Origin: a bacterium
Lineage (GTDB): Bacteria > Hinthialibacterota > Hinthialibacteria > Hinthialibacterales > Hinthialibacteraceae
Assembly: GCA_963663405.2 (NCBI GenBank)
Contig: CAXXSM010000164.1
Span: forward strand, 1 to 58,728
DNA length: 58,728 nucleotides
Direction: 5' to 3'
Part shown: positions 1-39,632 of the stretch, piece by piece
Position numbering within the stretch: position 1 is the first letter of the stretch
Layout: every line of letters starts with the position of its first letter
The notes under the pieces: generated by a model
Databases searched by the model: none
Told to the model about the DNA's origin: nothing
Seen by the model: the letters and a program-made list of their open reading frames with translations, nothing else
Position numbers and translations under genes: made by a program

Positions 1-83
1 TTCAATCGTTCCGGATAGAGCGTGGAGGCGCCCATCGAGCCGATTTGATTCAGCTGCTCTTCGGTTTGTATTATTTCGTTCAT
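1..83 (-). CDS. 5' end of next operon gene, probably NuoF/HoxF-like NADH-binding subunit (cut by window edge)
   Basis: ATG at 83 overlaps the upstream stop (ATGA); reads MNEIIQTEEQLNQIGSMGASTLYPERL. Identity inferred only from position after a NuoE domain. Confidence 0.4.
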   Translation of the reverse strand, partial: MNEIIQTEEQLNQIGSMGASTLYPERL

Positions 84-982
84 TCAAACGCCTCCAAAAT
101 ACCCGCGATCTTATTCAACTTCACATGGCCGAATGTCACCCCATCAATCCGCATCGCTGGAGCCAGCGCGCAGCAGCCGATACACCGAACCGTCCGGAGA
201 GTAAACCGCAGATCTTCACTGGTTCCCCCGGCGGAAACGCCAAGTTCCTGCACCAACTGATCGAGTACAAGTCCTGATCCACGCACGAAACAAGCCGTCC
301 CCATGCAGATCTCAATCGTATGCCGCCCGACCGGCTCCAAATTGAACGCATTATAGAAACTCGCCACCCGCAGGATTTCAGCCAAAGGAATCCCCAGCTG
401 GAACGTTAAATATTCCAACATCGGACGGGGAAGATATCCCCGGTTATCATTAATATCCTGTAAAATCTGGATCAAAGGAGCCCGGTCGTCTTTATACCGC
501 GAAAGAACTCCTTCAAGCCATGCTTTATCATCTTCTTCAAGCAATTCGCTGGGAGCAAATGGCGCGACGGATTCAGGAACATACCGCACAGGGCAATTCT
601 GCCAGCATTCACCGCATCCCGTGCACTTTTCCGCATCCACTCCTCTTGGATTCTGCCGAACTTTTACGTCAAAATTCCCGGCTTCGCCTTTCAGTTCAAC
701 GATATCCGACATTGTTAAAAGGTCGATATTATAGTCGCGCATACATTCCACGAGTTTAGGAGAAATAATACATGTGGCGCAGTCGCCCGTCGGGAATGTT
801 TTATCCAACCGCGCCATGCCGCCGCCGACAGTCGGTTGTTCTTCCACTAAATAAACGCGGAATCCCGCGGCGGATAGATCCAAAGACGCTTGAATCCCGG
901 CGACACCCGCGCCGCAGACAAGCACCGCGCCGGAAGGTTCTTTGCCGTTCGATCCAGCGGTAACTGTTTGGTTTGCATTCAT
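80..982 (-). CDS. Fusion of HdrA N-terminal FAD/Fe-S segment and NuoE/HoxE-like [2Fe-2S] domain
   Basis: VLVCGAGVAG dinucleotide fold, HdrA signature LDKTFPTGDCATCI, ferredoxin CTGCGECWQNCP; then LIQILQDIN..GYLP, ASFY, CMGTAC and CIGCC as in NuoE. Confidence 0.85.
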   Translation of the reverse strand: MNANQTVTAGSNGKEPSGAVLVCGAGVAGIQASLDLSAAGFRVYLVEEQPTVGGGMARLDKTFPTGDCATCIISPKLVECMRDYNIDLLTMSDIVELKGEAGNFDVKVRQNPRGVDAEKCTGCGECWQNCPVRYVPESVAPFAPSELLEEDDKAWLEGVLSRYKDDRAPLIQILQDINDNRGYLPRPMLEYLTFQLGIPLAEILRVASFYNAFNLEPVGRHTIEICMGTACFVRGSGLVLDQLVQELGVSAGGTSEDLRFTLRTVRCIGCCALAPAMRIDGVTFGHVKLNKIAGILEAFE

Positions 983-1878
983 CGCGTACCTCCACTGCCT
1001 GCGGCGCTCTTCGCTGTATCCCGTTGTTCGAGAAGAGACGCCGCGCTGACGATCAAAGCGTCTAAACCAAGATCGTCTGGAGTGAGACCCAAGGCCAATC
1101 CAAGTAATTGTGTGATATACAAAACGGGCGTGTCAGGAATCTCCCCATAGGCTTTTTTCGCGTCCGATTGACGCAGATCCAGATTCGCCTGACAGAGTGG
1201 GCAAGCGACAGCCAAACAATCAGCGCCCGCCCGCCGCGCCATTGATAATAATTTATGACCCAGACGGCATACAATATCCGCGTTTGTGATCGAGAGCGCG
1301 GCCCCGCAGCATTCAGTTTTATACGGCCATTCCACTGGCGTTGCGCCTGCGGCGGAGAGAAGATCGTCCATGCAGGTTGGATGTTCCGGATCATCAAACG
1401 CGGCGATCTCCGGCGGACGGGAAAGCAGACAACCGTAATAACATGCCACCCGCAAACCCTCCAGCGCCCGCTGCGTCTTCGAACGAATCGCATCCAGGCC
1501 TAAATCATTCACAAGAACATCCAAGATATGACGGACGGGCGTCGTCCCTTCACAAGGTTTTCCAAGAATCGCCGACGCGCGGTCCCGTTCCGCTGGATCA
1601 TTCTTGACTTTGTAGTTCGCCGTCCGCAGACGGGCGTAACACGACGCGCAGGCTGTGAGAATATCCATTTTCATCGCCCGCGCTTTTTCGATATTCATCA
1701 TCGCCAAAGCCACGGCTAGCGACGTGTTGCTCGTATGGGCGGGAGTGGAGCCACAGCAAACCCAATCAGGAATCTCTTCCAGTTCAATTCCTAAAGCGCG
1801 GCAGATGGCGCGTGTGGATTTATCAAATTCCCAAGCGGTGGATTCCAGGCTGCAACCGGGATAGTAGGCGTATTTCAC
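979..1878 (-). CDS. hdrB: Heterodisulfide reductase subunit B-like (two CCG domains)
   Basis: YAYYPGCSL, WVCCG, ACASC, YYGCLLSRP, ECCG, ACPLCQANLD. Confidence 0.92.
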   Translation of the reverse strand: MKYAYYPGCSLESTAWEFDKSTRAICRALGIELEEIPDWVCCGSTPAHTSNTSLAVALAMMNIEKARAMKMDILTACASCYARLRTANYKVKNDPAERDRASAILGKPCEGTTPVRHILDVLVNDLGLDAIRSKTQRALEGLRVACYYGCLLSRPPEIAAFDDPEHPTCMDDLLSAAGATPVEWPYKTECCGAALSITNADIVCRLGHKLLSMARRAGADCLAVACPLCQANLDLRQSDAKKAYGEIPDTPVLYITQLLGLALGLTPDDLGLDALIVSAASLLEQRDTAKSAAGSGGTR

Positions 1879-2447
1879 CTTTTCTTCTCCTCCTCTTCCG
1901 CTTTACGGAACACATCCCGCACCTCGTTGACGCTCCCGCTTTTTGTTGGCAGCAGCGCCAGTTTTCGTTTCTTGAACATGGTAGGCGCTTTATCCATATC
2001 GGCGAATAACTGCCCGGATCGGACTTTATAAGCGGTCAGCATCCCCAATTCAAATACACGCCCATGCCGTTTCACACTGCCCAAGAACGACGAGCGGTTG
2101 AAAGGTTCACCCCGCGCGTCAGGTGAAACGGCTTTGCGCTCAACGGCCATGATTCGCAGCGTATCCATCACTCCCGCGATGTCGATTCCCATTGGACAGC
2201 GCGTCGTACAGGCTTCACATGAAGCGCACAACCAGATCGAAGGCGATTCCAATACCTTTTCTTCTTCTCCAAGATGAATCAACCGCATCACCTGGCTGGA
2301 TAATAACTCCATTTCCGGTCCCACCGGACAACCGGTCGAACATTTATGACATTGAAAACACGCGCTGACGGGGGTTCCGCTGCGGCGTTCGACTTCACGC
2401 AGAAACGTGGCGCCTTTCCATGCAAGCGATCCTTCCATATCAATCAC
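1875..2447 (-). CDS. hdrC: Heterodisulfide reductase subunit C-like (2x[4Fe-4S])
   Basis: CFQCHKCSTGCP and IWLCASCEACTTRCP; overlaps the hdrB start. Confidence 0.9.
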   Translation of the reverse strand: MIDMEGSLAWKGATFLREVERRSGTPVSACFQCHKCSTGCPVGPEMELLSSQVMRLIHLGEEEKVLESPSIWLCASCEACTTRCPMGIDIAGVMDTLRIMAVERKAVSPDARGEPFNRSSFLGSVKRHGRVFELGMLTAYKVRSGQLFADMDKAPTMFKKRKLALLPTKSGSVNEVRDVFRKAEEEEKKR

Positions 2448-5134
2448 CCATTCCTTCCAATTCCGCTTGAATTTCCTTATCCGTACTCGGCGCCACTTTT
2501 CGGTATACTTCTCGCGGTGTTTTTAGAACGCCGTCAACGGTCAGAAGATCGCGTTCGATCTGGATATCGAAGAGCCGTTCATTCTCACGTAGATAAGGCA
2601 AAAGCAGTTTCCAGTCTTCAGGCTTAAAAGCATAGAACGCTCCACCATTCAGCTGTTCTTCTACAAGTGTGCGATGAGGATCGCGCACATAAATCGCGCC
2701 CCCGGAAGCGAGCGAGAGAAGGTTGCTTCCAGGATAGGGCAGTACAAACGGAACCACGCGCCCATTTTCATCCAATTCAACACCGTTGACAATCGCGAAT
2801 CCCCCGCCATTGAGAGGATCCCCCGCCATGAACGATTCCGCCAGAAAGTCCAGCGCGGTTCCATTGATAATGGCTTTCAGAGAGCCGACCGCGTTGATCA
2901 TCGGCCGACCGGCGGCGTTGCCCAGCACGTAAATCTCACCCCCCTTAGCGCCGTAAAGAAACGTCTGTCCGACATCACCATAAACGACGAGTTTGCCTTT
3001 CTTCGTAATCTGACCGAGCTGATCTTGGGCGTTGCAATGCACATAGACTTCCAGCCCATCCATTCCCGAACCAAGATAGTCCCCCGGATTGTCGTAACAA
3101 TCGACTCGCAGCCCTTCCGTCGATGGGCCGAATCCCGCCGCATGGAAACGGGTTCCACGCGAGTTATAATGAATCAGATGTTTCCACCCTACGTTATACG
3201 CCTCAATCGCAAGCCTCGCGTCGCAATTTGCGCCTTCCGGTGAAAAGCCACGCGCGTCAATGAGAAGAGTTTTTTTCATTCCCTTCCGGGCCTCGCAGCC
3301 GGTCACGAGTATCCCACGTGATCCGCCGGTGAGTCGAGTCTCCATTATTCCCCGTCTCATGACAAAGATGTTGCCGTTCAAAAAGAGTTTCTAGACCATT
3401 CCGCAGTATGGAATAAATAGAACTGCGTTTCTTATCTCCAGTGGGATACCGCCGATCCATACATAACGTTAGCGCCTCAATCCCAAAAGATGGTTTTTTC
3501 TTCGCGGTCTGGTCTACTAATTCATCAACAAACCAGCGCAGACGGTCGTAATCCATCTCGACGATCAAATCACGGAAATAAGTGTATAAACCAACGGGAT
3601 CATTTTCCTTGATAGCCCGTTCAATTTTCGCTTTATCTTCTTCATTCTTAGCTGACACGGTGGGGGCAGACGAAAGATCGCAGTGCGTTTGTCCAGGCGC
3701 CGTAGTCACCGATTCCCCAAATTTATTCGTTACACGCATTTCATACTGCCCGTTCGTCCCATCACCATTCTTTGGAGTAATGTGGAACAAGAACGCGCCG
3801 CCATTCGTATAACTCCCACCTCGCGCGTTCCAGTATTGATCCGCCACAGGAGTGAATCGGGAATCCTCTTTCGCCAGACTGGCCAAGGTCGCGTCGATCG
3901 CCTGCTTCTCCGAGCAGATCAAACCTATCGACACTTCCCCTTCCTGCAAAGCGAAAACCTGTGGACGAAGCATCGCGGTATCGGTGATCCCCACAAGTTG
4001 GAATCCTTTCGCGGGATCGAGGCTGCGGGCAATAATGAAGAACCACGGTCCATCAGGAGACGCGTGAATGTGCGACGCTTGAATATGCCGGTAGATACGC
4101 CGCTTATCGGCGGGTAAACGATCGAAATCGAGTTCCGTTGTTGGCGCCAGCGCTTCAATTATATATTCCGTTGGATAGCCATACGTCCGGTTAAAGAGAT
4201 CGAAAAGCAGAACAGACACTTCCGTATCCGTCAGAAATTGCGGAAATAGATTATGCTGCGCCAAGTATTCACTGACAGAATGATAATTCGCGAAATCGCC
4301 GTTATGAACGAGCGCTTCGTTCATGCCGATAAAGGGATGCGCGCCACCTGGGTGCCATACCCGCCCGCGGGTCGGATAGCGCTGATGGGCGATCCATACA
4401 TGAGCGCGCATATCCGGCATGCGATAGTATTGCACAGCCGCTTCCGCATATCCCACAATTTTTATAATCAACAGATTCCGCGCGTGGGATAACACAAACG
4501 CCCGCTTTTCCCCCAGCGAAGCGTAGTATTGTTGATTCAACTGAAAGGAATTCTGGAAGACGAACTCGTCTTCAATCTCCCGGTCCGAAAGATTCTTAAG
4601 ACCTTTCTCTTCCGCGAAACGTTCGAGAGCCTCTGGCTTGGCCTTTACAAAATAACGGGCCACGTCAGGCGGTTGAATGTCGAGAAGTGGAATATCACGG
4701 TAGTCATCGACAGTCGGGATCATTCCGCCCTGATCCACGTTAAAGAAAGGCTCAATGCAGTTTTTCTCCACCTCGCCACGGGCGTTCGGATCGAGCAACG
4801 CGATCTGTAGAATGTAATCTTCATCAAGAACGCTTCGAGACACACCCATGTCTTCCGGAACCAGTCCGCAGGCGGCGATTCCGCCCCCTTTTCCATTCCC
4901 CCGGTTGCGCATCTGGATGGAAGGTTCGTAAATATGACGTCCACCCACTGGTATAGAGCAGGCGAAACCGGTTACGCCGCAGCCGCCTTCCGCTTCCGGT
5001 GAAGAAGGGAACCATTCTCTTCCTGGTTCCGGCCGGAAATGTGTTCTTGCTTCCTCATATATCTCGGCCCGGCTGTGAGGTGAGACCCGCCGGGAAGATT
5101 GGATATTGGATGGTGTATATAAGTTCCTAGTCAT
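2440..5134 (-). CDS. Glutamate synthase glutamine-amidotransferase (Ntn) domain plus C-terminal GXGXG domain; one frameshift near 3260-3380
   Basis: EAEGG-CGV N-terminal nucleophile context, HQRYPT, AHPF, VHNGDFANY, TDTE, DGPW, LRP in 3257..5134; PGDYLGSGMDG, GDVGQTFLYGAKGG, GNAAGR, LASGGAIYVRD in 2440..3381. Confidence 0.8.
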
Positions 5135-6698
5135 GGCGTTGGTTTGCCCTCATAATCAAGATGAGTCAATACATCGGTTCGGCCGCGCAGGGACGCCCAC
5201 GGAATCAATCCCTAACTGATAGAGAATATCGATCAATCTCTCACGCCAGGCGTTGTAAAGGTTTACCAGCCGCTGTGTACACCATTCGATTGTGACCATT
5301 TCCAATAGTTCTGTGTCGGTCGTACAGATCCCCCTTGCGCAGCCCCGCCCGCTCTCGCAGCAACCACAGCGGATACAGCCCAGCGCGACTAATTCGGCGG
5401 TGCCGATCACGACACCGTCCGCCCCCAAAGCGATCGCTTTGGCGACGTCGTATGGACTTCGGATGCCGCCGCTGACGATCAATGTAATCTCGTCCCGCAC
5501 GCCTTCATTGACGAGAAATTGATGCACCATATTGATCGCGTACTCAATCGGCATGGCGATATTTTTCTTTGCGATATTGGGAGCCGCTCCCGTTCCTCCA
5601 TAACTGCCGTCCAGATGCACAATATGCGCCCCGGCGCAGTACACCCCCACAGCGACCATATCCACATCCGCCGGTGTAGATACCTTCGCGGAGAGCAGCG
5701 CCTGCGGGTTGATATGCGCGATCCAATCGAGGTGCTTTTTATGATCCTCAATTGAATAGACGCTGTGAAATGGAAACGGAGAAAACAGAGATGAGCCGAC
5801 AACCGCCTCGCGCATCGCGGCCACTTCCGGTGTATTCTTATCCCCCAAAAGGTGCCCACCGAGTCCCGGTTTTGCGCCCTGGGCGTATTTAAATTCCACA
5901 ATCCGCGCGCGTTTAATCGTCTCTTCCCGCACGCCAAAAAGCCCTGTCGCGACTTGCGTGATCATATGATCCGCATAGGGAATCATCCGGTCGGGATAGC
6001 CCCCTTCACCCGTGCAACTGAAGGAATTCCATGCCTTCGCCACTCGCGCCTTGCTTAAGAGCGCCCGCAAGTTGGTCGATCCGAACGACATCCCCCCACC
6101 ATACCACGGCACATCGATTTCAACTTTTGGACGGTTATCTTTACTTCGATTAAGAAGCAGTTTTGTGGATATATCTTCACGGCGCAGATCGGATGGAGGC
6201 GCCGGAAGAGTTCGGAACCGAAGACGGTCGAATCCTCCGCCGGACGCGCCGATTTCGCTTTCAAGATAGGAGGGAGGCGCATGACCCGTCTCAGCCATCA
6301 TCCATGTCGACGCCAAAAGATCCGGCGTCCACCGGTAATCCCCCATCGTCTCAAAGGCGGGATTGAGGGTGACCGAGAGCGCGTTCTGTGGACAGGCGTT
6401 CACACAGTAATGATCCGTCTCCGCGCATTCGAATCCCAACGCACCGGTAATCAAATGGCCGGATTAACCGTTTATATCCACTTGGTCGGATATGAACATC
6501 ATGCGGACAGATCTCAACGCATTTCCCGCAATTTACGCAAAACGACGCCCGGTGCACACTGAATTTCCCGATCTCATTGCGGTAGCGCGGCAGCGCGGGA
6601 TGGATCTCCCGCGATACGTCCGCATAGGCGGGATGCGACAAAAAATCCTCACTCTTTTGAGAAACCGCTTCTGGACTGAGGACGGAAGGACTGCTCAT
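5131..6698 (-). CDS. Ferredoxin-containing glutamate synthase FMN-binding subunit (archaeal GltB2-type); frameshifted near 6440 and 5195
   Basis: CVNCGKCVEICP, CVNACP, GGMSFGS, CTGEGG, QVATGLFGV, EFKYAQGAKPGLGGHL, DGSYGGTGAAP, SGGIR, KAIALGAD, CIRCGCCESGRGCARGI. Alternative frame LRGRTDVLTHLDYEGKPTP* ends overlapping the next ATG. Confidence 0.85.
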
Positions 6699-6700
6699 GA

Positions 6701-8108
6701 TCAGATAACTCCGTTTTGATCTTTTCGTTTTCCAAAGAGCCGGCCGAACGTCTCCCGTTCGAGATCTTCGAAGAACATACAGCGGCCCGTCTCACCCCGC
6801 AGCCGCCGGACTTCCCGGATTCCCATCGCGCCTAGCAGCTCGATCAATTGATTGCGCCAGGCGCCGATAAGATTCACGATGCGCTGGACGGCGTAATCCA
6901 TCTCCGCGCCTTCCAGATCGATTGGACACAGTTCATCTCGCTCGCATTCCAGGCACAGCCTGCATTCCAGCGCCAATACAAGAGGCGCGTCAACGGCGAT
7001 CAAATCCGCCCCGCAAATAATCGCTTTCGCCATATGTTCGGGCAACGCGATCCCTCCCGACGCGATCAGTGTAATTTGATCCCGCGTCCCGTCTTTTAAC
7101 AAAGCGGTATGGATTTCTCGCAATACGTCTCGCGCATGACGTGGCTTTGACGGAGCGGTTTCCCGCCCATGCAAATCAAAAACGAGATGAATCACCTCGA
7201 TCTCATCCCGGTTTAATTCAAGAACGCGTGACGTAGTTTCCGGTGTAACATCTATTCGAACCGCGATGATCTGCCCTGGATTATCCGCTTTCAAACGGTC
7301 CCGGACCGCGATGATATTTTCACAATCTGGAACCATCACCAATGGCGTAGAAGAGAATGATTGCTGCAAGGCTTCATCCCCATCCGCATAGAGAGGGACA
7401 ATGCCGTTCGATTCTTCAAATAAGGATTGATGACTGGTCTGCGTGGGAAGCACAGCCAGCGCTCCAATTTTCTCCGCCGCTTTCACCGCCGCTTCAACCA
7501 TCGGGCCCCGCTGCCAATGCTCCGGTAGAATATCGAAAATCAGAGGTAATGGACTCTCGATCAATGGGGGCGGCGTAACACGCAACGCTCCATCCTGAAA
7601 CGAGAGATGGGGCAATGTCCGGCCGATATCCACGCTGGTGTTGATATACTCGCGTCCATGAATGCCATCCCGTGTCGGGCGTACGATTTCGGACATATCC
7701 GTCCACATCGAATCAAAACCGGGGCCGCTGAATGGGCCGCCGTACCCCCGAACCCGATACGGGGATCCGTCCCGTCTCCGCTTGAAACCAAGTGGATAGA
7801 ACGATCTCCGGCGTATAATATTCGTCACCGAGACGGCTGTATTCAGGATTTTCCACCCGTGTGAGAATGCCTTTCGTGCAATTTTGTACGCAGTTCAGAC
7901 ACCCTTTGCATTGGAAGATATAATCCAGAAAACCGATCTCTTCCCGCAACGTATCCGCTTCTTCCCGGTAGAAACCATAGACACAGCCCTGCTTGACGCA
8001 ATTATGGCAATTGGAACAATCCTCCCGCCAGTCGACGATCCCCAATTTCCCTATGGGCCGTAGACGGGGAGGGGCGGATTTCGTATGAATGCTATATTTA
8101 GCTGGCAT
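6701..8108 (-). CDS. Second, divergent glutamate-synthase FMN-domain paralog with N-terminal ferredoxin; frameshift near 7740-7760
   Basis: CSNCHNCVKQGC, CKGCLNCVQNC, GFDSMWTDMSEIVRP, RDQITLIASGGI, KAIICGAD, CRLCLEC..CP, ELLGAMGIREVRRLRG; lacks the QGAKPGxGG motif. Confidence 0.75.
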
Positions 8109-8111
8109 GAT

Positions 8112-9028
8112 TTAATCGGTTCTCAGTCCAGATTTGTCGATCAATTCCAACACAGCGCCGTCATCATCGGCGCTGCAGATTTCAAAACCACGTAATCCGT
8201 CGAACGATGAAAGCCGCTCGATCGTTTCTTTCGCGATCGCGATCCCTTCCGCCCGCTGTTCCTCCACGCTGGATTTCGATCCAAGCCGGTCGAGCAGCGC
8301 CTGTGGAACCAGGGGCTGAGGACGTTCGCGCGCATAGGCCTTCGCTTCTTCTCCATTCGTCAATATGCGAATCCCCGCCAAAATAGCGGCGCGTTCATGA
8401 ATCCCGCTTCGCGTCAATTCGTTCCACCATTCTCCAAAACGATCCAGGTTGTAAACCGGCTGCGTGATCAAAAACCGCGCCCCGGCTTCGCATTTTTTTC
8501 CCAACCGCATGATCTGTAATTCAAGCGGGTCCGCAAACGGAGCCGCCACACCACCGAAACAGAATGTAGTTCCGTTTAATCTAATCTCTTCCACAACCGG
8601 TTCCCCGGCCGCAAGGCGGGTTCCGGGACTGGATCAATTGAATCGAATCGATATCGAACACACTCTTTGCGTTGTGGAATCGCCCGAGAGTCTGGTGCGT
8701 GCCCGTTGTGCAGAGGATGTTATGAATCCCTAATGCCCCCGCTCCAAGGCAATCGGAAAGCAGCGCGATCCGGTTTCGGTCACGAGTCACCATATGAAGG
8801 ATGGGTTCCACCCCTTCCGCAACAGTCAGCGCCGCCGCCGCCAAGGCCGACATACGCGTCCCTTCGCGGTTGTCACTGATCCCCAACGCATGTTACCTTC
8901 CCAGCGTATTGTTTCACGCGAGATCTCACCAGGTCGGGATCGCATGAGGAAGGAGGCGCGATTTCCACCGTCAATATCGGTTTTCCCGAATCAATTCGTT
9001 GATGAAGCGCTGTTTTCTCTGTTGACAT
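8112..9028 (-). CDS. metF: Methylenetetrahydrofolate reductase; at least two frameshifts
   Basis: ATG at 9028 (MSTEKTALHQRIDSGKPILTVEIAPP), then ISDN, EPILHMVTRDRNRIALLSD, GIHNILCTTG, KKCEAGARFLITQPVY across successive frames. Confidence 0.8.
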
Positions 9029-9122
9029 TGTATTTACAATCCTGGATAAATTTTCATTCTGCGAACGGCGATATTTGTTATTTATATTTTGAGCAAATTA
9101 ACGGATCATGCCTATCCATGAT

Positions 9123-9544
9123 TCAAATCGCAGACCGAATTGGATTGGCGCCCAATGCGGAAAACCGGCCCGCCGCCTCTTGAATTGCTTGCATGAGTTC
9201 ATCGGCCGTCACGTCCGGGGAACTGTGCATAAGTTCGATTCGCTTGGATTCCAGCCCAATCTCCGACAACAACCGCTGTACGGTCTTGATACGAATCTCC
9301 GCCCGGTAATTCCCCTGTCCCAAACGGCATTCCCCACGGGAACACGCGATGACGAATATCCCATCGCTGCCCCCCTTCCAATGCGTGAAAGAGATATTGC
9401 GTGTCGATTTTTCCACTGCACGGCACATGCTGAATCTGTATCCGCGCGCCATTCTCCATCCATTGACGGGGGTAAATGTCCGCCGGCGGGGATACAGTTA
9501 TGGCAGATATAGACAATCACATCCGCGGATGGGGATTTTTTCAT
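9123..9544 (-). CDS. mvhD: MvhD/FlpD [2Fe-2S] subunit; two frameshifts at G/C homopolymers
   Basis: VYICHNC, VPCSGKID..LFHALEGG, DGIFVIAC..GEC..GNYRA, LLSEIGLE..RI assembled from three overlapping ORFs. Confidence 0.85.
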
Positions 9545-9663
9545 CGTTTATGTCCTTACAGGTTCGGTAGGAATCAAAGTCGAATGTACGAATACGGCGG
9601 CGGAGACAATCCACTCTGCATTACTCGAATCTCATTTGTGTTCCTGAATCCTTAGGTTTTCCT

Positions 9664-9761
9664 TAGAAAAATAGGGTGGATCTCGCATGATTGATCCACT
9701 GGGAATGATTCATGGGTTCGATGGATCATCTAGAGGCGATCCATTGAAACTTATTTTTCTA
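9664..9761. promoter_or_regulatory. Two TGGATC-N10-GATCCA palindromes inside an outer TAGAAAAATA/TATTTTTCTA inverted repeat, upstream of mvhD
   Basis: GTGGATC(9676)-10 nt-GATCCAC(9699) and ATGGATC(9721)-10 nt-GATCCAT(9744). Confidence 0.45.
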
Positions 9762-10248
9762 TAAATCGAGTTAAAATTTCATCTATTTTTAAAGAATTTA
9801 TCGATTTAATATGGAAATGTATGGCCAATATTATCAGAATTTGGATGCTTAGTCAATGCTTGGAAACAATTTTGTCCGGGAAATAAATCGATCCACGGAA
9901 CTTGACGGTATTCGATAATATCCGAATCCAATCCTAACCAGCGGTGATTCGGTCTTACCAAATACAAGCAAAAAAAAGATACAATCTGGTTTATCCAGAA
10001 AGTGCCCGCATAAAGAGAGGAGTAAACAAAAATGTCATTTCTTCAAATTCTCAAAGTGAAAACTGGACGAATCTTTCTATCTCGCAGGGATATTTATATA
10101 GTCAGGGATTTTAATATAGGGCGCCTAAATCGTTTCACAATCTCCCGTTGAAAAGTGAATGGACTATACACAAAAGCGTACTCACTTTCCGGGTAAAACG
10201 ACCATATTTAAATGGCGCCATTGCCATTATATGAAAATGAAAAAATAA

Positions 10249-11011
10249 CTAATCTTTGTTGGCGAGTATAAATATGAGGGCTTTTAATCTGCTAACCAAT
10301 ACCAAAACCGGAATATTTAAGTCTCTTTCCCTGGACGAATGGCGCTGCCTAGATAATCCCTTTGGAGCTGCTCGATACAAAGGACCAACGACACACGCGC
10401 AAATTTCCTTCGCTTGCGGGTAACAATCACGGCAGCAGTAATTTACCGCCCGGCAGTGATCCACGATCGATCGGTCTTGGTCGTCCACTCCATTGGTGAT
10501 TTCCATCATATCCTTAGCGCGTTGACATAATTTTATCCCGTCGCTGTGCCGGTCTTGCGCGCAGAGCAACATCGCCAAGTGATGAAGACTGAAATGCTGC
10601 AACTTCGAATTCACTTCAGGCCACCGCAGATAATGCGCTTTTTCCTCAATATCCAAAGCGTGATGATACGCGCGTTTCGCTTCGTCGATTTTGCCCCCAG
10701 GCTTGATATAGCAAACCGAGTTGGTTCAAACTCCGGGCGGCCGCCAATGAATTGGGCGCCAAAAGGTTTCTCTCTATACCCAGCGCGTTTTTAAAACACT
10801 GTTCGGATTGAGAAAAACTTTCCAACGCAAAATAGTAAACCGCCAGCATCTTATATAACTTCGCCGTGTACGCGTTTGGATAGGAATAACTCTCTGCTTC
10901 TTTTAAAGCCGCTTGAAAACAGGTTTCGGCTTCATGAAAATCTTGATTTGAAAATTTTTGCACCCCAGCTTTTTGCTGCCGCATCATAGCTGAATAACTC
11001 ATCACATTCAC
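10249..11011 (-). pseudogene. Tetratricopeptide-repeat protein, frameshifted or degenerate
   Basis: AETCFQAAL, SEQCFKNALGIERNLL..AARSLNQLGLLY, SLHHLAMLL helical repeats across ORFs 10646..11011 and 10249..10656. Confidence 0.55.
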
Positions 11012-12695: not shown

Positions 12696-14679
12696 GCCTC
12701 TTCGCTATTTCATGTGGGTAGAGGGTAGAACCTCGAGAAGATTACATTCCAATTTTCCTCTGCCAAACAGATGGTTACGATCAACTTGTAGACGTTTCGA
12801 TATCTGTTAAGCGACAAGTATTTTGCAGTAGGATTGCCCTCCATCGATCCGTTTGCGGGTCTGGATTTTATCGAAGAAAAAAGAACCATATCTTTATGTG
12901 CCGCATGCTTGTGGAGTCTGTGGTCAGGCGCCTCAATAATCTTTCTCATTCCCCCTAATCTTTCGCAGGTGGCTGTCCAAATCTTGTGGGCAAACCGGCA
13001 GGAACTTTCTCTTCTCACCCAGAGTATCGGCGGTTTGTCCATAAGATGGCAGAATCCACAAGCCCTCACTCGTTCGGATTACTGATCATGAATCGCAGAC
13101 CGGAGAGACTCAGCCGGTTTCATCCGGTGTCTTTTGCTTAGTTTGGCGGCTTGCCTGCAGAAACGGGAACGATTCAAGCCGTATTACTATTTCGTGTGGG
13201 GCGAGGGAAGAACCTTGGGAAGATTGAATTCCAACTTGCTTCCAATCAAATAGATGGTAGTGATTAAATTGTTGACGTTGCGATAGCCTCTCGCACGGGC
13301 CTTGGCGGCTTGGATCAGGCTATTCATCCCCTCCAACAGACCATTGTTGATTCGCGAAGTAAACCAACGCACCACACCAGCCCAGTGCTCCTTGATCGTT
13401 TTCGCGGCCTTGATCATAGGCTCAATCCGGCCTGTGAGTCGCCCAATAATACCACTTTTTAAGAAACGATTCCCCCTCCTCCGGATCGTCGAACGAAAAC
13501 ACGTCTTGGAACACGGATCGCAGATGGTAGGCTTTCACCGTCTTCAATTTGCTCCCTCGTACATCTTGAAAAATTTCGTTCCGTTTCTTCTCTTGCTTGT
13601 CCGTGAGATTCCATTCATTCTTCAGCCAAATATACTTCGTCCCCTTCAATAATTCGGGATAAATCGCTTGGTCTTGTTTGCGCACTTCGTCCACAGCTTG
13701 ATTGATAATCCTCATCAGGTGGTATTCATCAAATGTCATTTCGGCGGCCGGGAAATTGGCTTCAATCCCGGATTGAAACGCCTGGGACATATCCAAACAA
13801 AATTCCTCCACCTGCTCCGCCTTTCCGTTATGCGTCTCTAAATCCTCTTTGAACGCCCCCACCGTTTGAGCGTCCTTTCCATCGGTGGCAAACATCACGC
13901 TGCGCTCGTCCAAATCCATGAATACGCTGACATAATTGTGCCCTTTGGCCTTTGAGGTCTCATCCACCCCCACCGCCTTCACTCCCGAAAAATCCTCCCT
14001 CTCTCGCGCGTCCATCACATAATGAGTCAGCACTCGCCAAATCAGCGTGTCATATTCTCCGACCACTCGGCTGATCGCATTGGCCGTCATCCCATTCTCC
14101 GCCAGTGCCATGACCAACGCTTCAAATAACAACGTAAATCCCGCCCCCGGACGGGCCCAGGGAAGATTCACTGTCTTGACTTTATGATTGGGACATTTCA
14201 CACGAGGTTGCCGGGCGTGTAAATACGTCTCATACTGAAAGAAATTCAGATGCCTCCAAGTGCGTCGTTTCGTATCATGCACTCCACACAGGTTCCCGCA
14301 TTCGGGACAGGGAAACAGACTCCCCTCGGGAAAGTCCAGCGTGAGGTGCAAGGTTTTTTCTTCCTCAGGAAACTCGGCCTGGACGACCTGCCATGGCTCA
14401 CTCAAACCTAACGCTAACCGGAATAATTCTTGGTTCTTCATTCTCTTCCTTCTCTCTCTCTCTCTCTCTTGGGATTGGGATCTTTGCCTTTAGCCTGGGC
14501 GGAGGATCGGACCTTGCGGGGACGCGAACTGAGTGCTGACCAAGAAGACTGTCGAAGGACGGTCTAGCACCGCCCTTCTTGTTAGTTTATCTCGTCGGGA
14601 TTGGTACGTAAGCGATATATCTTCGGGAGGATGGAGGAAAGCCTTCCCCAAATCTACCCACTCGATTCAGCGAAGAGCC
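12696..14679 (-). mobile_element. Complete ISL3-family insertion sequence
   Basis: Imperfect IRs GGCTCTTCGCTGAATCGAGTGGGTAG / GCCTCTTCGCTATTTCATGTGGGTAG; 8-bp direct repeat TCAAATTA at 12688-12695 and 14680-14687. Confidence 0.92.
13187..14441 (-). CDS. ISL3 transposase (frameshift near 13420)
   Basis: Zn ribbon CPECG..C, WRHLNFFQY, VGVDETS, LDMS, FDEYH, NGLLEGMNSLIQAAKARARGYR. Confidence 0.9.
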
Positions 14680-17600
14680 TCAAATTATTCGGGATCGAAG
14701 ACGGCTCTGATAACGCCGAGACGCGATTGATTAACGTATTTGTGACTAGCGCGGTTAGATGATTTGCGCCAGCTCGCGCTTTTCCAGTGATGTCGAGTGT
14801 TTGATCCCGCATCCAGCATACACCAACGGGGATTTCATTGATCTTGATTTCCACGATGTTCCCGACGGTTCCTGGATCGAGTCGCAGCAGTATATCATCG
14901 GCGATATACATCGCAGGAAGATTGAAATCAATCTCATACTGCCCCGTTCCACTGAAATTCCTTGTGACTGGATCTTCTGTCCAGGATTCCAGATGAGTGA
15001 CAGTTTTTTCCAACCGTGGAAAACCACGATCCTCCAGAACCATTTTCCATTGTCCCGTGACGGTGAATGGCGCAGGTAGGTTATCAACTATTGTGCTGTG
15101 CTGGGAAGTTACGTCGCCTTGAACCAAGGTTACATAGTGTGTGCCATTTTCAGACGCGATGGCTTCGACATGCAAGTCACTCAGCCCAGTGATCTCATCA
15201 AAATGGGTTTGCGTGGACAAAGCCTTCATCCTGTTTGTCGAAAAATAGAATAAACGTAGATTCATACGGTGATAGACAAAGAGGAATCGTTATACCTTCT
15301 TCTTTCAACTCGTAACACCAAATACGGGATACACCGCCTGTATAAGGATTCCACATCCACGGAGCCTTTCCTTTGACGCGAAAAGTAACGGGAATTCGGC
15401 TTGGTTTGTCTTGTATGTTCGAAACAAAATAGATATCGATATCGCCGTCTTTTCGATGTAGAAATGTAAGTCCATCATTTTCACAGATACTGTGCAACGC
15501 AAAGTCGATTCCAAAATCCGGAGGTATGTGTTTTCGTATGGCGTTCAGAAATGGATCGAACGCGCTGCTTTGCCGGTCGAGAACATCGCTGCGATCCATA
15601 ACCGTGTCGATCCGGATCGTATACCCCTCCCCGTAACGGGGAGGGCGGAACATCTCGTTGGCGATGGATTGCACTTCCTTGTCATTTTGCTCGTGACGCA
15701 AAAAACCAGTTGACCGGTTGGGGATTCTTTCCAACGCGATCACAACACCGCCAGCGCGGGCGTATTCCTTGATGAAACGTATAGTTTCTAAAGGCACAGA
15801 CTCGACACCCGGTAAGATGAGAATCGAGTATTCCAACTCATTCACTTTAATTTTGCCATCACTGATAACGGCGCGGTTTTGAAGGATATGATCATTGAGT
15901 AGATCAAAATCATATCCGTTGCTGATAAGAAGTTTCCCCAGTTCGCCCCAATCAAATTCGCGCGTCCACTTCCGGGCGTTTAAAACATCTAACGTCCATT
16001 GGTTAGCGAGAGGCGAGTACACTGCGATATCGGCAGTGAAATGGCCTTTCCGCAGTAAATATGAACACCGGGACACATAATCCGCAAGTAATGGATAGTA
16101 ATCCCACCAGCAATTGGTATGAGTAATCCGCGCGGCGAATGGGATTGATCGGGAGGGCGTCACATCCCGTTCGGGAGAGTAACTATAGCCATGATTGATA
16201 AAACGATTAGCGCCGGACCGGAAAAATCCATCACTGGCTATCTTTAGTTCTTCGAGTGTTGCGCGATACAGTTCCCAATGAATGTAGGTGTACGCTTCAA
16301 CCGCCACGACATTCCGTACATACAAATGCGCGCCCGAAGCGATATATTTTTTAGGCCCGATCCGCGTGTCAAACCAGGGCACAATATCTTTCTCCCCGGA
16401 GTGACTTCCATCATGGGCAGCGGCGCCAAACCGGCGGATTGGATAACATCTGTTGGAAATCCAATTGGTTCCATACTTCCCTTGATTCCATGCTTCTCAC
16501 ACCAGCCTAGAAATGGGTGGAAAAACGCCTCGAAGCCCATATGATGAAGAAGTTCACTGACGTCATAGCGAATGTATGGAGAGAGTTCTCCCACATCCCA
16601 CCAGATCGCAGGTAGATATTTCGTGAGATCGTAGCCATGATCGTTTTGAAAGTCATCTAAAAGAGAATTACTCCAGTAAATTCCATTCGGTAAATTGGCC
16701 AATTCAAAACTGTCACAATGAAACGCTTCCAGAGTCTTCCCGAATTCATCCCCAAACGCTTGAAAGAACTTGCCTCCAACATAGTCACAGTACTTTTGAA
16801 CAGCGGTTCTGCTGAAATGATCGAGGCTCCAGTGCTCTTCATGGCTTCGTTGGCCAGTATTATTCAACCAGAAAGCCATCACACGCCATTCTCCTTCCGG
16901 AGCCTTCCAGGTGAGCATGAAATCATCGTTTACACGTTCGGTCAGAATCGTCAAGGAAGATTCAACAATTGTATTTTGATCGATTCTTCTGCTACGACAG
17001 CAATTAATTTGTCATTGTCCGGTATATCTTCTACTCGTATTTCACCCCGGTGATCCGGCGCTTTTTTGAATCTAGGCAGCTGGATGGTAACCGATTTCGG
17101 GCCTTGGATATTCACAAATGTTGGAACCAGACTTTTACTGCGTTCTTCCCAAGGAAGCCAGGAACCGCCGAACGCCCATCCAGAACTGAAATTCAGATAG
17201 ACTTTCATATCCAAGCGTTTCGCGGTTTGGATGGCGTGCTCAATCATATCGAGATAGAGATCAGAAAGGTATTCAATATTGCCCTTTTCATACACTTTCG
17301 GCGCGGCGCTAGTAATCAACACACCGCCAATCCCTTTCTCACGCATCTGCTGCATTTCCCACGTAATTTCATCTTTAGTAACAGCATTCCCCGGCCACCA
17401 CCAATAGGTGTAGGGCCGGCAATCCATCGGTGGATTCAAGAATTCTTCTTCCCATTTCGCCAATACTCGATCATCAGCAGTATGCGCGGGAAAAACAAAT
17501 GAGATTACAAGCGAAAAAAGGAGAAATGAAAATTGGAACAGGTTGGTTATGCGATCATCCGGCATGAATTCAATCCCTTAAGTGTTTTTATTATTACCAA

Positions 17601-17801: not shown

Positions 17802-18048
17802 ATTCAAAACCTTATTAATAAAAATTTGATATTGTTTAGGTTTTCGTAAGTCTTTATTTTTCAACAAGCTGGCGGTGGGACTTGAACCCGCGACCTGCTG
17901 ATTACAAATTAGTATGTCCCATGTTTTATCTACCTTTAAATCCTTCTAATAAGGTTTAAAAATTCAATAAAAACGGATATAATTACCCCTAATGAGTTAG
18001 AAGGTCCGCCTTTGAACTTTTATTCAAAACCTTATTATAACCTTATTA
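17802..18048. repeat. Four AACCTTATTA motifs flanking the att core (putative integrase arm sites)
   Basis: ATTCAAAACCTTATTA at 17802 and 18022, AACCTTATTA at 18039, inverted TAATAAGGTT at about 17948. Confidence 0.55.
17867..17912 (-). other. 3' half of tRNA-Thr(TGT): integration (att) core, not an intact tRNA
   Basis: Minus strand TTTGTAATCAGCAGGTCGCGGGTTCAAGTCCCACCGCCAGCT = anticodon loop, T-arm and 3' acceptor strand; D-arm and 5' acceptor absent; about 140 bp from the integrase. Confidence 0.85.
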
Positions 18049-18053
18049 AAAAA

Positions 18054-19190
18054 ATGAAACTTACTAAATCGAAAGTTGAAGAAATTCCTCTTCAAGAGAA
18101 GGGGCAGCGGTTTTATTTTGATTCTCAATTGAAGGGATTCGGTGTCTGTGTTGGAAGGAAATCGAAGACATATATTGTACAACGCGATGTTGATGGGAAG
18201 ACCGTTCGTGTAACGGTTGGGCGGCACGGTGTTTTTACAACCGAACTCGCACGTAAAAAAGCCCAGGAAATCCTAGTGCGCATGGTTAATGGAGATGATC
18301 CGAGACAGGAAATAAAGCCGGATAATATCACCCTGAAAGATGCCTTTGATTCCTACCTTGAAACAAGAAAGCAGTTGAGTGCAAAAACGATTAATGACTA
18401 TACCCGTTCATTAAACCTTTACTTAAAAGATTGGATGAGAAAGACTCTTGAGAAAATAACCAAGGATATGGTCTTTGAAAGGCACAGGAAATTGGGAGAG
18501 ATCGGACACTCTACGGCGAATTTAGTTATGAGGATTCTCAGAGCTGTTTACAATCATGCTAAAGCGCTTAATGAAAACTTACCACCGAATCCAGTATCTC
18601 GTTTGGGACAGACAAGGGCGTGGTATCGAGTGGAGCGTAGAAGGAATATCATTAAAAATCATAATCTTCATGATTGGTATCAGGCTGTTATTAATCTCCC
18701 TAACCCAACAATAAGGGATTATCTGATTCTTCTCCTTTTCTCCGGGATGCGAAAGGGAGAAGCGGCCAAGTTGAAGTGGAAGGATGTGGACTTAAAAGAA
18801 AAGAAATTCGTGGTTCCAGAGACGAAGACACACGAACCGCTTGTCCTTCCATTGAGCGATTTTCTTTGGAATCTCCTAAACGTGCGTGAAATAGATGGGG
18901 AATTTGTTTTTCCCGGAACTGGGAAGACCGGTCATCTTGTTGAACCAAAAAAAGCGGTAAAGAAAGTAGTCGAAACTTCTGGTATTAATTTCATGATCCA
19001 TGACCTTCGGAGAACATTCATAAGCATTGCGGAAAGCCTTGATATCCCAGCCTATGCGCTAAAGCGTTTGCTGAACCATAAAATATCTGGGGATGTGACG
19101 GCTGGTTATATCATTACGGATGTTGAAAGGCTACGTGTACCAATGCAAAAAATAACAGATTTCATCGTTGACGCTGCGAAAATTCAATGA
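18054..19190 (+). CDS. P4-like tyrosine integrase with N-terminal arm-binding domain
   Basis: FDSQLKGFGVCV..KTY..VTVGRHG arm domain; catalytic SGMRKGE, TK, HDLRRTF, LLNH, TAGY. Confidence 0.95.
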   Translation: MKLTKSKVEEIPLQEKGQRFYFDSQLKGFGVCVGRKSKTYIVQRDVDGKTVRVTVGRHGVFTTELARKKAQEILVRMVNGDDPRQEIKPDNITLKDAFDSYLETRKQLSAKTINDYTRSLNLYLKDWMRKTLEKITKDMVFERHRKLGEIGHSTANLVMRILRAVYNHAKALNENLPPNPVSRLGQTRAWYRVERRRNIIKNHNLHDWYQAVINLPNPTIRDYLILLLFSGMRKGEAAKLKWKDVDLKEKKFVVPETKTHEPLVLPLSDFLWNLLNVREIDGEFVFPGTGKTGHLVEPKKAVKKVVETSGINFMIHDLRRTFISIAESLDIPAYALKRLLNHKISGDVTAGYIITDVERLRVPMQKITDFIVDAAKIQ

Positions 19191-29453: not shown

Positions 29454-30240
29454 TGTCAACCGCGAATCCGACAACCACTAAACGCCTGACGACATTATCG
29501 TTATATCATAGAGTCTCATTCCGATAAATACTCGTAAATGGGACCACTATGGATGGAATTCAAGTGCTGTTTTCATTGATCTTGAAGGCTAATATATTAT
29601 CTGCTCGCTGGGCGGGAACTGTTCGTATCAGGCAAATGTGGAATCTTGCTGGGGAGAAGAATTATCTCAAAATCGAGATCCAATTGTTCCGGGATCGGAT
29701 TTTTCAATTGGAAACCGAACTGGAAATTTGTTGAAAATATAGAAACGATACAAATCTAAAGTCGCACTACACACTTCGAGAAAGATTGCTGATTCTTTGG
29801 TACAGGAATATTTTTCAAGTATCGACACGCGAGATCACGAAACGACTTGGCGTTGCACGAGCAATGATTTATCGATGGATAAGGAAGATCGGAGACGCGT
29901 CTTCAAAGAAAACAGAACCGGCAAATAAGACGCCGATCGAATTAGTACGATTGGTTTTTCAGATAGCGAAAGTCAATTCTCACTAGGGTCGCATTCGTAT
30001 CTCCCTTCAATTGAGTCTTCTTCAAGTTTTCATGGCGGCCTCCACGGTTCGAAATATTCTCGACCGCCCTGAGCCCTCTCCCCCGGAAAGCCACCCCCCC
30101 CCCCCAAAAAAAAAGGAAATCTTCAAAATTGTTGAGCCAATCGGTCTGTTTCGGCGTTGTATCCCAATCATGTTTGAAGTGTGGATCGAACGATTGTAAA
30201 GCATGGGGATTGTGGCCTTGTTACGCTCTAGTGATAACTT
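29454..30240 (+). mobile_element. Degenerate IS (HTH plus integrase-core type) left end and transposase N-terminus
   Basis: TGTCAA..GCGAATC end; DRIFQLETEL, LGVARAMIYRW, TPIELVRLVFQIA..N..GRIRI..L...ASTVRNIL with stops. Confidence 0.6.
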
Positions 30241-30299
30241 GGATAGTTTTTACCAATGATAAATGAGTAAGAATATAAAGAGAAAGTGTCCTCGGACCA

Positions 30300-30641
30300 G
30301 ATTCAAACAGACGCTTTTCAACCGCCATCAGCACGAGATTTATGATTTTTCTCGTTGGTACCTGTAAATTTTCAATTCCGTTTCCAACTGGAAAATTCGA
30401 TCATGTAAAAAACGAATCTCATCTTCCCTTCCCTCATACTGTCCAAAGAAATTACGTAATCTTTGGATCAGATTCCTTCCTACTCAACGAGTCGAGAGTA
30501 TAAGAGCATTGAGGATCAATAGAATTGCTGCATGAATTACGTTCATAGAGGTCCCATTTACGAGTCTATATTGAAAGGGGATCATATGATATAACATTAA
30601 TAACATCAAGTGATTAGCAGTGGACCGATTCGCCCTTGACA
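30300..30641 (-). mobile_element. Second, inverted degenerate copy of the same IS left end
   Basis: Reverse complement TGTCAAGGGCGAATC...GTTATATCATA...CTCGTAAATGGGACC matches 29454-29550; encodes MNVIHAAILLILNALILSTR*...HDRIFQLETEL. Confidence 0.6.
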
Positions 30642-31130: not shown

Positions 31131-31268
31131 TTCTGAATATCACCATTTGTACCCTTGTTTACCTATAGTTACTAGATATTTGGGCAAAATTTGGTTAAAT
31201 ATAAATTTTCAATGTCAATCGCTTTCAATATTGACGCCTCATTTAAAGTCCAAATTTTGATTGAGTTT

Positions 31269-32335: not shown

Positions 32336-32409
32336 AAATCTAGTAAATATCTTAGTCTGATTTTTTTTACTGATATCCTGAGCATGATAAATTATCCTCC
32401 TCTGTAGTG

Positions 32410-32469
32410 GATCATTTTATAACCTTATTAACGTCAAGCGATTAGCCGTAGTACGATTCGCAGTTTACA
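32410..32469 (-). mobile_element. Third isolated end of the 29454/30641 IS family
   Basis: TATAACCTTATTAACGTCAAGCGATTAGCCGTAGTACGATTCGC..TTACA aligns with TATAACATTAATAACATCAAGTGATTAGCAGTGGACCGATTCGC..TGACA. Confidence 0.5.
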
Positions 32470-39599: not shown

Positions 39600-39632
39600 A
39601 AACCTACTCCTTTAAAATAGTAATCATATTAT

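Follow-up and report, generated by a model that had tools for sequence, protein, structure and literature searches.

The window analysed here is the complete contig C164 (58,728 bases) of a bacterium of the Hinthialibacteraceae, the assembly of which measures 8.44 Mb in 170 contigs, is 82% complete, and has a G+C content of 46.9%. At one end of the window lies a minus-strand operon, running from position 9544 to position 1 and cut by the contig end, in which genes related to heterodisulfide reductase (Hdr) and to methylene-tetrahydrofolate (methylene-THF) reductase (MTHFR) are interleaved with three genes resembling pieces of a glutamate synthase. The gene order from 9544 to 1 is mvhD1, metF, gltB1, gltB2, a glutaminase/GXGXG fusion, hdrC, hdrB, a fusion of the HdrA N-terminal part with NuoE, and the start of a nuoF-like gene (Table 1); HdrA, HdrB, HdrC, and MvhD are therefore co-encoded in the window, with HdrA present as its N-terminal piece only. 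Neighboring genes are separated by gaps of 0-3 nt or overlap by 4-8 nt, the exception being the mvhD1-metF junction (~90 nt). An earlier note on this DNA had described tightly spaced mvhD, metF, two ferredoxin-bearing GltB paralogs, an amidotransferase-GXGXG protein, hdrC, hdrB, and HdrA/NuoE, with neither metV nor gltD in the visible part. All of the named genes were found in their places by open reading frames (ORFs), Pfam, and tblastn, and metV and gltD are indeed missing from the visible part, with relatives carrying metV three genes further on.

Table 1. Genes of the operon and the region upstream of it, with positions counted from the first base of the window.
Feature	Position	Strand	Basis
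mvhD1, MvhD/FlpD-type [2Fe-2S] adaptor	9123..9544	-	139 aa, extra bases 9370 and 9468 discounted; tblastn to orthologues
metF, MetF-type methylene-THF reductase	8112..9028	-	PF02219 on both ORF pieces; 304 aa, extra bases 8625 and 8893 discounted
gltB1, N-terminal 2x[4Fe-4S] ferredoxin domain and degenerate GltS-type FMN barrel	6701..8108	-	Fer4_9, weak Glu_synthase; 468 aa, extra base 7745 discounted
gltB2, ferredoxin domain and catalytic-looking GltS FMN/synthase domain	5131..6698	-	Fer4; PF01645, E 3.2e-88
Class-II (Ntn) glutaminase + GXGXG beta-helix fusion	2440..5134	-	GATase_6, GXGXG; 897 aa, extra base 3270 discounted
hdrC-like 2x[4Fe-4S] subunit	1875..2447	-	190 aa; Fer4_8/Fer4_17; 76% identity to the L011 orthologue
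hdrB-like, two CCG domains	979..1878	-	299 aa; PF02754, two stretches
HdrA N-terminal piece + NuoE-type [2Fe-2S] fusion	80..982	-	300 aa; PF01257 (2Fe-2S_thioredx) E 1.6e-42, FAD_oxidored, Fer4
nuoF-like (HydB/BfuB-like) gene, first 27 codons, cut by contig end	1..83	-	aligns to relatives
AT-rich region upstream of operon	9545..10250	.	sigma-70-like site 9856-9828 (minus strand)

As assembled, mvhD1 has no Pfam match; MvhD orthologues match it by tblastn, and four Cys residues are conserved across the orthologue alignment. The metF orthologue matches MTHFR in both NCBIfam and the PDB, and the hdrB orthologue matches the NCBIfam model of CoB-CoM heterodisulfide reductase subunit B, below the cut-off of that model. 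The HdrA piece of the HdrA/NuoE fusion consists of the FAD-binding GxGxxG motif and one Fer4 domain, and residues 1-132 of the HdrL-type protein encoded at a sister-family locus (L011) match window positions 982-587. The nuoF-like start overlaps the nuoE stop (ATGA), in the same fashion as in relatives, and its 27 codons align with the beginnings of the NuoF-like genes that six relatives have at this junction. With respect to the promoter region, no sigma-54 site was found in 9545-10280 (consensus TGGCAC-N5-TTGCW, up to two mismatches); with the same settings, the whole window yielded 21 matches against 24.3 expected.

Eight frame breaks were located by tblastn with the intact L011 orthologues, namely two each in mvhD1, metF, and gltB2, and one each in gltB1 and the glutaminase/GXGXG fusion. 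This number of breaks within 9.5 kb, set against intact ORFs of 1522 and 1656 aa elsewhere on the contig, prompted the reading of a decaying operon of pseudogenes, which was ruled out when contigs from three public runs (X1, X2, and X3) were aligned to positions 1-9600. Seven of the eight breaks correspond to single bases absent from the public contigs, at positions 3270, 5196, 7745, 8625, 8893/8894, 9370, and 9468. Over 6865-9600, the record of run X1 differs from the window only by five gaps, at bases 7745, 8625, 8893, 9370, and 9468; that of X2, a close relative, is without bases 3270, 7745, 8625, 8894, 9370, and 9468; and X3 is without base 5196. One public contig also extends 634 bases past the left end of the window. 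Several of the breaks fall in single-base runs, and discounting the seven bases restores mvhD1, metF, gltB1, and the fusion to the lengths given in Table 1, which are those of the orthologues. The eighth break, in gltB2 at approximately 6414-6454, lies within a region (6081-6720) having next to no read cover. Thus, because the public contigs are without the extra bases, seven of the eight breaks are assembly errors and not decay, and the operon is treated as intact in the organism. A GH106 alpha-L-rhamnosidase gene outside the operon (14654-17565, minus strand) is likewise broken into at least three overlapping ORFs matching successive parts of the Pfam model, probably by the same kind of single-base assembly error, and TPR fragments at 10249-11011 look similar.

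The closest relatives of the HdrA/NuoE protein come from metagenome-assembled genomes (MAGs) labelled Thermoguttaceae, Pirellulales, and Planctomycetota; here and below, the taxon names of loci are the depositors' labels. In one of these, labelled Thermoguttaceae (L014), the HdrA/NuoE gene is followed by a nuoF-like gene, a gene for a NuoG-like/HdrA protein of 1141 aa, a second mvhD, and metV (PF12225). The NuoF-like protein contains Complex1_51K and NADH_4Fe-4S domains together with an extra C-terminal 2x[4Fe-4S] pair typical of HydB/BfuB, and the 1141-aa protein comprises a NuoG-like N-terminus (Fer2_4, Fer4), then the rest of one HdrA, and then a second HdrA-like unit. The full unit has 12 genes—that is, mvhD1-metF-gltB1-gltB2-glutaminase/GXGXG-hdrC-hdrB-hdrA(N)/nuoE-nuoF-nuoG(N)/hdrA-mvhD2-metV—and HdrA is split over two genes by an inserted NuoE/F/G-like module.

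The probable split glutamate synthase trio

Glutamate synthase (GltS) is the main gate through which nitrogen enters biomass. Of the three genes of the trio, the glutaminase/GXGXG fusion shows a column-wise conservation of 66-79%, with the motifs GGCGV, HQRYPT, HNGDFANY, and TDTE invariant and RNRGNGKGGG kept. The GGCG motif lies at residue 10-85 in all 76 intact orthologues, so that the leader before the Cys residue is as expected for an Ntn glutaminase, with cleavage of this leader being putative. A GXGXG beta-helix at the C-terminus is matched by PF01493. The structural model of the fusion (pLDDT 79.9, pTM 0.84) has a strand-rich C-terminal half and matches both ends of the GltS alpha chain; its first matches are GltS alpha chains (6S6S, E 9e-11; 7MFM, 1EA0, and 1OFD), followed by the glutaminase domains of GlmS and PurF. 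Searches of PDB sequences with the fusion profile, and likewise with MetV, gave no matches.

The GltB2 orthologue aligns to residues 877-1172 of A. brasilense GltB (2VDC/1EA0) with an E value of 1e-50, and conserves the AQGAKPG loop, the motifs following it, and the Cys motif of the iron-sulfur cluster, with two further Cys residues present. GltB1 has no sequence match in NCBIfam or the PDB. The best structural alignment of its model (pLDDT 74.1) is to the synthase domain of GltS (Z 23.2, rmsd 3.3-4.2 over 300-315 residues), with other FMN barrels scoring only slightly lower (Z ~20.5). The least conserved stretch of GltB1 corresponds to the site of the AQGAKPG substrate loop of GltB2; by comparison, its ferredoxin domain keeps all eight Cys residues without exception, and at least 90% of 18 sequences have a CxxCxxC...C motif at the C-terminus. 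From these patterns, we read GltB1 as a catalytically degenerate, cluster-bearing twin of GltB2. With respect to the GltS central domain (PF04898), only a weak match on GltB2 was obtained, and the GltB1 model aligns best to GltS residues 781-1190, not to the central domain. Furthermore, GltB1-GltB2 fusions of ~980-1000 aa are common among 1039 longer proteins found at E<=1e-10, which supports the two being parts of one enzyme. Judged by its motifs, the trio appears to be a functional glutamate synthase that depends on glutamine, and the split glutamate synthase proposed at the outset is borne out by the glutaminase and synthase motifs and by the GltS folds.

It is very improbable, in our estimate, that the trio is instead a related amidotransferase/imine reductase with some other 2-oxo acid or amine as its substrate—for example, an N-methylglutamate-synthase-like enzyme passing one-carbon (C1) units to folate. 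Such a function would explain the company of MetFV, and is in keeping with the fusion and GltB1 reaching no NCBIfam equivalog cut-off and having no sequence-detectable PDB relative, as well as with a marginal GATase_6 match (27.9 bits, against a cut-off of 27). N-methylglutamate synthase is also built of separate GltB-like pieces; however, its redox-neutral reaction needs no electron input, whereas the ferredoxin domains on both barrels of the trio would imply a net one. The substrate/FMN loop of GltB2 and the neighboring motifs are near-identical to those of authentic GltS, and the glutaminase motifs are invariant. In addition, genes of nitrogen assimilation adjoin the trio in five of 80 loci (the best 80 of at least 434 confirmed relatives, retrieved with an alignment of the glutaminase/GXGXG fusion as query), namely glnA in L104, L107, and L108, and canonical gltB-gltD in L052 and L111.

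To our knowledge, all characterised glutamate synthases take electrons either from GltD, and hence NAD(P)H, or from free ferredoxin. The operon in the window contains no gltD, and has fused ferredoxin domains and MvhD in its place. A model of the complex of MvhD1 with GltB1 gave an ipSAE of 0.69, compared with 0.06 for the best of three controls. Of 80 solved complexes, 58 came up to the mark applied to this score, as did two of 110 mismatched pairs; these counts are only rough, since own alignments were used. At least 70% of contacts are common to the MvhD1-GltB1 runs, with a partner pLDDT of at least 81. The contacts on GltB1 fall in the ferredoxin domain (residues 23-29, 61-64, and 83-92) and the C-terminal Cys motif (385-395), and those on MvhD around the conserved Cys residues. 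MvhD1 is thus predicted to dock on GltB1, and the model supports binding. Taken with the gene order, this points to one iron-sulfur flavoprotein assembly in which the split glutamate synthase is wired via MvhD to MetFV and to the HdrA/NADH module, an interpretation to which we give a little less than an even chance.

Conservation of the operon across genomes

Conservation was examined in two sets of loci, some contigs being common to both: 21 loci retrieved with the HdrA/NuoE fusion as query, and the 80 loci introduced above. All 12 genes are collinear in 11 of the 21 loci, and the other ten, cut by contig ends, retain consecutive parts in the same order. In the larger set, gltB1 and gltB2 directly precede the fusion in every one of the 60 loci with at least 3.2 kb upstream, an arrangement far from chance. 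Of the 53 loci with at least 4.7 kb upstream, 46 contain metF and 51 contain an mvhD; with at least 2.5 kb downstream (64 loci), Hdr genes follow in 54. Among the 47 loci with at least 8.8 kb downstream, NuoF is found in 27 and a GltD-like insert within HdrA in 12; two have HdrA with neither detected, and six are without a long HdrA, making the NuoE/F/G version with split HdrA the commoner version in the sample. The last six comprise L066, which keeps hdrC, hdrB, and the HdrA N-terminal piece, and L102, L107, L109, L110, and L111, which have no Hdr gene. A lack of conservation in other genomes was among the outcomes that the earlier note named as refuting its interpretation; this refutation fails, since besides the collinear loci of the first set, the block recurs in most of the 80.

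The labels of the carriers span at least 15 phyla, including Planctomycetota, Geobacter and other Desulfobacterota, Polyangia, Binatia, Nitrospirota, Gemmatimonadota, Armatimonadota, Spirochaetota, Hydrogenedentota, Chitinispirillaceae/Chitinivibrionales, Omnitrophota, Sumerlaeota, Lentisphaerales, Opitutae, Bacteroidota, Actinomycetota, Bathyarchaeia, and Methanospirareceae. The fusion family is correspondingly large, with at least 7627 clusters (90% identity) at E<=1e-20 among 8000 scored candidates, carrying generic names only. In the phylum of the organism itself, the distribution is patchy: at a threshold of E<=1e-100, the fusion was found in six of 35 genomes (its own genome, G000, counted), in one of 19 other members of the family, and in all four members of the sister family.

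The conserved order bears on a further possibility, namely that two or three independent enzymes merely share the operon: an NADH-dependent MetFV-Hdr MTHFR of the 'type IV' kind discussed below and a ferredoxin-dependent split glutamate synthase, co-regulated through a shared low-potential electron pool, without forming one complex. The trio does occur without MetF or Hdr (L100, L101, L108, L109, and L111), and no fusion of GltB1 with MvhD, MetF, or MetV was found among the 120 listed of the 1039 longer relatives, where the fusions are GltB1-GltB2 ones only. HdrL/MvhD modules are, moreover, associated with quite different partners in Desulfobacterium autotrophicum, as described in the accessible text of PMC2702500. 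Nevertheless, this possibility is improbable, for the trio stands between metF and hdrC and the halves of MetFV lie at either end of the operon, an order shared by many phyla, and such an interleaved arrangement would be hard to keep without a functional tie. An mvhD also remains beside the trio in nearly all of the loci counted above, even where metF and hdr are gone, and the predicted MvhD1-GltB1 contact stands far above its best control.

The contig carries several mobile-element genes, encoding an ISL3 transposase (13422-14441), a phage-type integrase (18012-19190), a DDE_Tnp_1 transposase (40788-42374), and a Transposase_29 protein (52446-54680), and the G+C content of the operon region is 52-54%, against 46.9% for the genome. 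Together with the patchy occurrence of the cluster among relatives, these features hint at horizontal acquisition.

Elsewhere on the contig, positions 30000-40000 have a G+C content of only 32-37%, sharply unlike the rest. The ORF at 32636-37606 (1656 aa, intact) combines CARDB, PKD, and transglutaminase-core domains, and is followed by two ORFs without Pfam matches (38016-39599 and 39633-40604). The plus-strand ORF at 42597-47165 encodes a 1522-aa hybrid histidine kinase, in which many PAS domains are joined with a PocR sensory domain and a receiver domain.

Proposed electron path and direction of flow

In the sister family (L011-L013), the same operon encodes a single HdrA of ~1508 aa, followed by mvhD. 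Residues 164-553 of the L011 protein match GltD/NfnB-like Fer4_20 and Pyr_redox_2 domains, and the remainder matches the HdrA part of the 1141-aa protein of L014. In the window, NuoE follows HdrA residue ~150, and unlike in L011, no GltD-like insert is present. The NuoE/F/G genes and the GltD-like insert thus share one insertion point in HdrA, and the presence of two alternative NAD(P)H modules at this point argues for a pyridine nucleotide as one substrate of the assembly. The NADH input through NuoEF proposed originally is upheld as far as the module itself is concerned, which is of a real NADH type, but does not extend to the sister version (12 of 47 loci), in which a GltD-like domain inside HdrA takes its place.

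In the assembly proposed here, the fusion protein would hydrolyse glutamine, GltB2 would hold FMN and the 2-oxoglutarate site, and GltB1, as a degenerate twin, would serve mainly as a carrier of iron-sulfur clusters. In place of GltD, MvhD-type [2Fe-2S] adaptors would link the synthase to MetFV and to the tandem HdrA with its inserted NADH module. NADH would reduce the FMN of NuoF, from which electrons would pass through the clusters of NuoE and the NuoG-like part to the FAD of HdrA. Two exits are envisaged: one via MvhD1 to the clusters of GltB1 and on to the clusters and FMN of GltB2, where 2-iminoglutarate, formed from 2-oxoglutarate and glutamine-derived ammonia, would be reduced; and the other via MvhD2, MetV, and MetF to methylene-THF. 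The HdrA flavin or a Bfu-like NuoEF core could push a second electron onto ferredoxin. The standard potentials are -320 mV for NAD, -200 mV for methylene-/methyl-THF, ~-140 mV for 2-oxoglutarate + ammonium/glutamate, and ~-450 mV for ferredoxin. On these values, both reductions are exergonic with NADH, and could therefore drive the reduction of ferredoxin; coupled to glutamine hydrolysis, glutamate synthesis would release enough energy for ferredoxin reduction by NADH, and nitrogen assimilation would then be energy-conserving. Whereas the gene content and order, their conservation, the intact frames in reads, the catalytic motifs, and the folds are observed, we infer the single complex, the electron path, and bifurcation.

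Shorter versions of the cluster were also found. In L110 (labelled Actinomycetota), the order is mvhD-metV-metF-gltB1-gltB2-fusion, with nothing Hdr- or Nuo-like within ~9 kb; in L104, it is glnA-mvhD-metV-trio; and in L101 (Marinifilum), it is mvhD-trio, and neither an Hdr nor an NAD(P)H module lies within 9 kb. In an archaeon (L108:4288-6132) and a member of the Opitutaceae (L111:4139-6049), a GlcD-like protein with FAD_binding_4, FAD-oxidase_C, and Fer4_8 domains precedes the trio, without mvhD, and may be another electron-input partner. The trio is thus a module taking different electron-input partners, with MvhD its most constant companion.

These short versions raise the possibility that electrons run through the same assembly in the opposite direction, with methyl-THF as the donor via MetF and 2-oxoglutarate plus glutamine, the reduction of which is highly exergonic, as the pulling acceptor; in the versions with Hdr and Nuo, the second electron would go uphill onto NAD+, constituting bifurcation from methyl-THF. 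The oxidation of methyl-THF by MetF lies at ~-200 mV. Since glutamate synthesis driven by a glutaminase is unidirectional, MetF is left as the sole donor site visible in L110, where MvhD-MetV-MetF and the trio stand alone, and the GlcD-like FAD/Fe-S dehydrogenase occupying the same place before the trio in L108 and L111 is of a donor type. The genome of the organism, with one match to formyl-THF synthetase, 20 matches to URO-D/MtaA-type proteins, and no CdhC-type acetyl-CoA synthase found (at 82% completeness), resembles that of a methyl-group oxidiser more than that of an acetogen, and in L011 a URO-D-family gene adjoins the cluster. We regard this direction of flow, the main rival to the NADH-driven scheme, as unlikely. 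The glutamate formed per methyl group oxidised would far exceed the need of nitrogen assimilation unless recycled, and the links to glnA and gltBD point to assimilation. One of the 20 URO-D matches must, in addition, be HemE. In the minimal clusters, reduced ferredoxin could also donate the electrons; a MetFV that depends on ferredoxin is known (PMC8515935, in the part available).

The URO-D/MtaA-type matches (PF01208) include 19 over the cut-off, for example at C165:30067-31080 and C53:113874-114857 and on C73, C111, and C122; this expansion is unusual and may point to many corrinoid-type methyltransferase systems.

Returning to the assembly with NADH as the donor, several observations weigh against it. 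The rest of nuoF, nuoG/hdrA, mvhD2, and metV were not found by Pfam or tblastn in the genome of the organism, which is 82% complete; PF12225 (MetV) has no match there, and the three matches to PF01512, like all of the tblastn matches (on C118 and C54), are interior paralogues of no more than 48% identity. A canonical gltB/gltD pair on another contig makes this enzyme unnecessary for basic glutamate synthesis. Among the 80 loci, hdrC/hdrB were not detected in L054, L075, L076, L086, and L095, and L110 and L101 show that NADH input is not universal, with MetF possibly on the donor side there. With NADH as the donor, neither reduction needs Hdr, and bifurcation is suggested by analogy and by textbook potentials. 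The function of every member of the cluster is predicted from sequence and models, and the docking model may be biased by solved MvhD-HdrA structures, both partners having ferredoxin-like domains. Finally, MAG labels and binning can be wrong. The overall interpretation in the earlier note is partly supported: the tight packing, the conservation, the NADH-type module, the GltS trio, and the MvhD docking model speak for it, NADH may feed both methylene-THF reduction and glutamate synthesis as it proposed, and the short versions allow the opposite flow. A new bifurcating class having glutamate synthesis as the driving half-reaction, either in the form NADH to ferredoxin or in the form methyl-THF to NAD+, is conceivable but somewhat doubtful.

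Two further gene groups lie on contig C118 of the same genome (C118:2292-6210 and C118:55659-58416), namely another hdrC-hdrB-hdrA-mvhD set and, apart from it, a NuoE/NuoF/NuoG-like (HydABC/Bfu-like) cluster.

Relation to known systems and biological meaning

The MetFV-HdrABC-MvhD methylene-THF reductase of Moorella thermoacetica was reportedly described by Mock et al. 2014. In the available text of PMC6085437 and PMC13391211, this 'type IV' MTHFR uses NADH as a substrate, its second redox partner is unidentified, and bifurcation has been proposed but never completed. As in that enzyme, MetF, HdrA, HdrB, HdrC, and MvhD are encoded in one cluster here, with MetV in relatives. Unlike the six-subunit type IV enzyme, the conserved unit adds three GltS-type and NuoE/F/G-like genes: a three-gene glutamate synthase stands between metF and hdrC, there are two MvhD genes, and a tandem HdrA is split by the NuoE/NuoF/NuoG-like module (in the sister version, by a GltD-like domain). 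The carriers, too, are mostly not acetogens, unlike in the case of Moorella.

Three elements of GltB/GlsF (1EA0, 2VDC, 6S6S, 7MFM, and 1OFD) recur in the trio, namely the Ntn glutaminase, the FMN synthase barrel carrying a Cys cluster motif, and the GXGXG beta-helix, but the trio differs in being made of three proteins, in the direct fusion of glutaminase and beta-helix with no central domain detected, in the constant presence of a second, degenerate barrel (GltB1), in the N-terminal 2x[4Fe-4S] domains on both barrels, and in having no free-standing GltD. ORFs consisting of single GltS domains exist in Archaea (PMC8097209, section 6.1, the part consulted). An HdrA/GltD fusion, HdrL, is described for Desulfobacterium autotrophicum (PMC2702500), and a 'type III HdrA' with a GltD insert for some archaea (PMC12054007), in the portions of these papers that were available. 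The sister version has an HdrL-like protein of this kind; in the version of the window, by contrast, separate or fused genes supply NuoE, NuoF, and the NuoG-like N-terminus in place of the GltD-like insert, and HdrA is spread over two genes. The combination of NuoE/F/G-like parts (BfuC/B/A) with HdrA-type and MvhD/HdrB-like parts is also seen in the class II benzoyl-CoA reductase system Bam-Bfu (BamB-I) and in BfuABC/HydABC, according to the main text of PMC9304861, and the extra C-terminal clusters of the NuoF-like protein of L014 recall HydB/BfuB. The catalytic partners, however, are MetFV and a glutamate synthase and not a tungsten benzoyl-CoA reductase, and the words 'glutamate' and 'tetrahydrofolate' are absent from the main text of that survey. 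In a search of full-text literature, with supplements outside its scope, GltB-type genes within an Hdr/MetFV cluster were not found described in the texts seen. The operon is apparently an undescribed variant assembled from known modules, in effect a combination of a type IV MTHFR, a split GltS, and an NAD(P)H module of the Bfu/HdrL type.

If the wiring is real, anaerobes of peat, soil, and sediment would have a new means of driving nitrogen assimilation or of gaining energy from it, and in many anaerobes this process may be linked to one-carbon and energy metabolism. The operon also offers a testable candidate for the redox partner still sought in MetFV-Hdr methylene-THF reductases, and shows that a single insertion point of HdrA can take up an NAD(P)H module of the GltD-like or of the NuoEFG-like type. 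Opposite flow, if true, would solve the known bottleneck of methyl-group oxidation in demethylators of methoxylated and methylated compounds. A bifurcating class, if true, would mean that nitrogen assimilation conserves energy and is mechanically coupled to folate C1 metabolism across many phyla, and would name a long-sought kind of second partner for the MetFV-Hdr enzymes.

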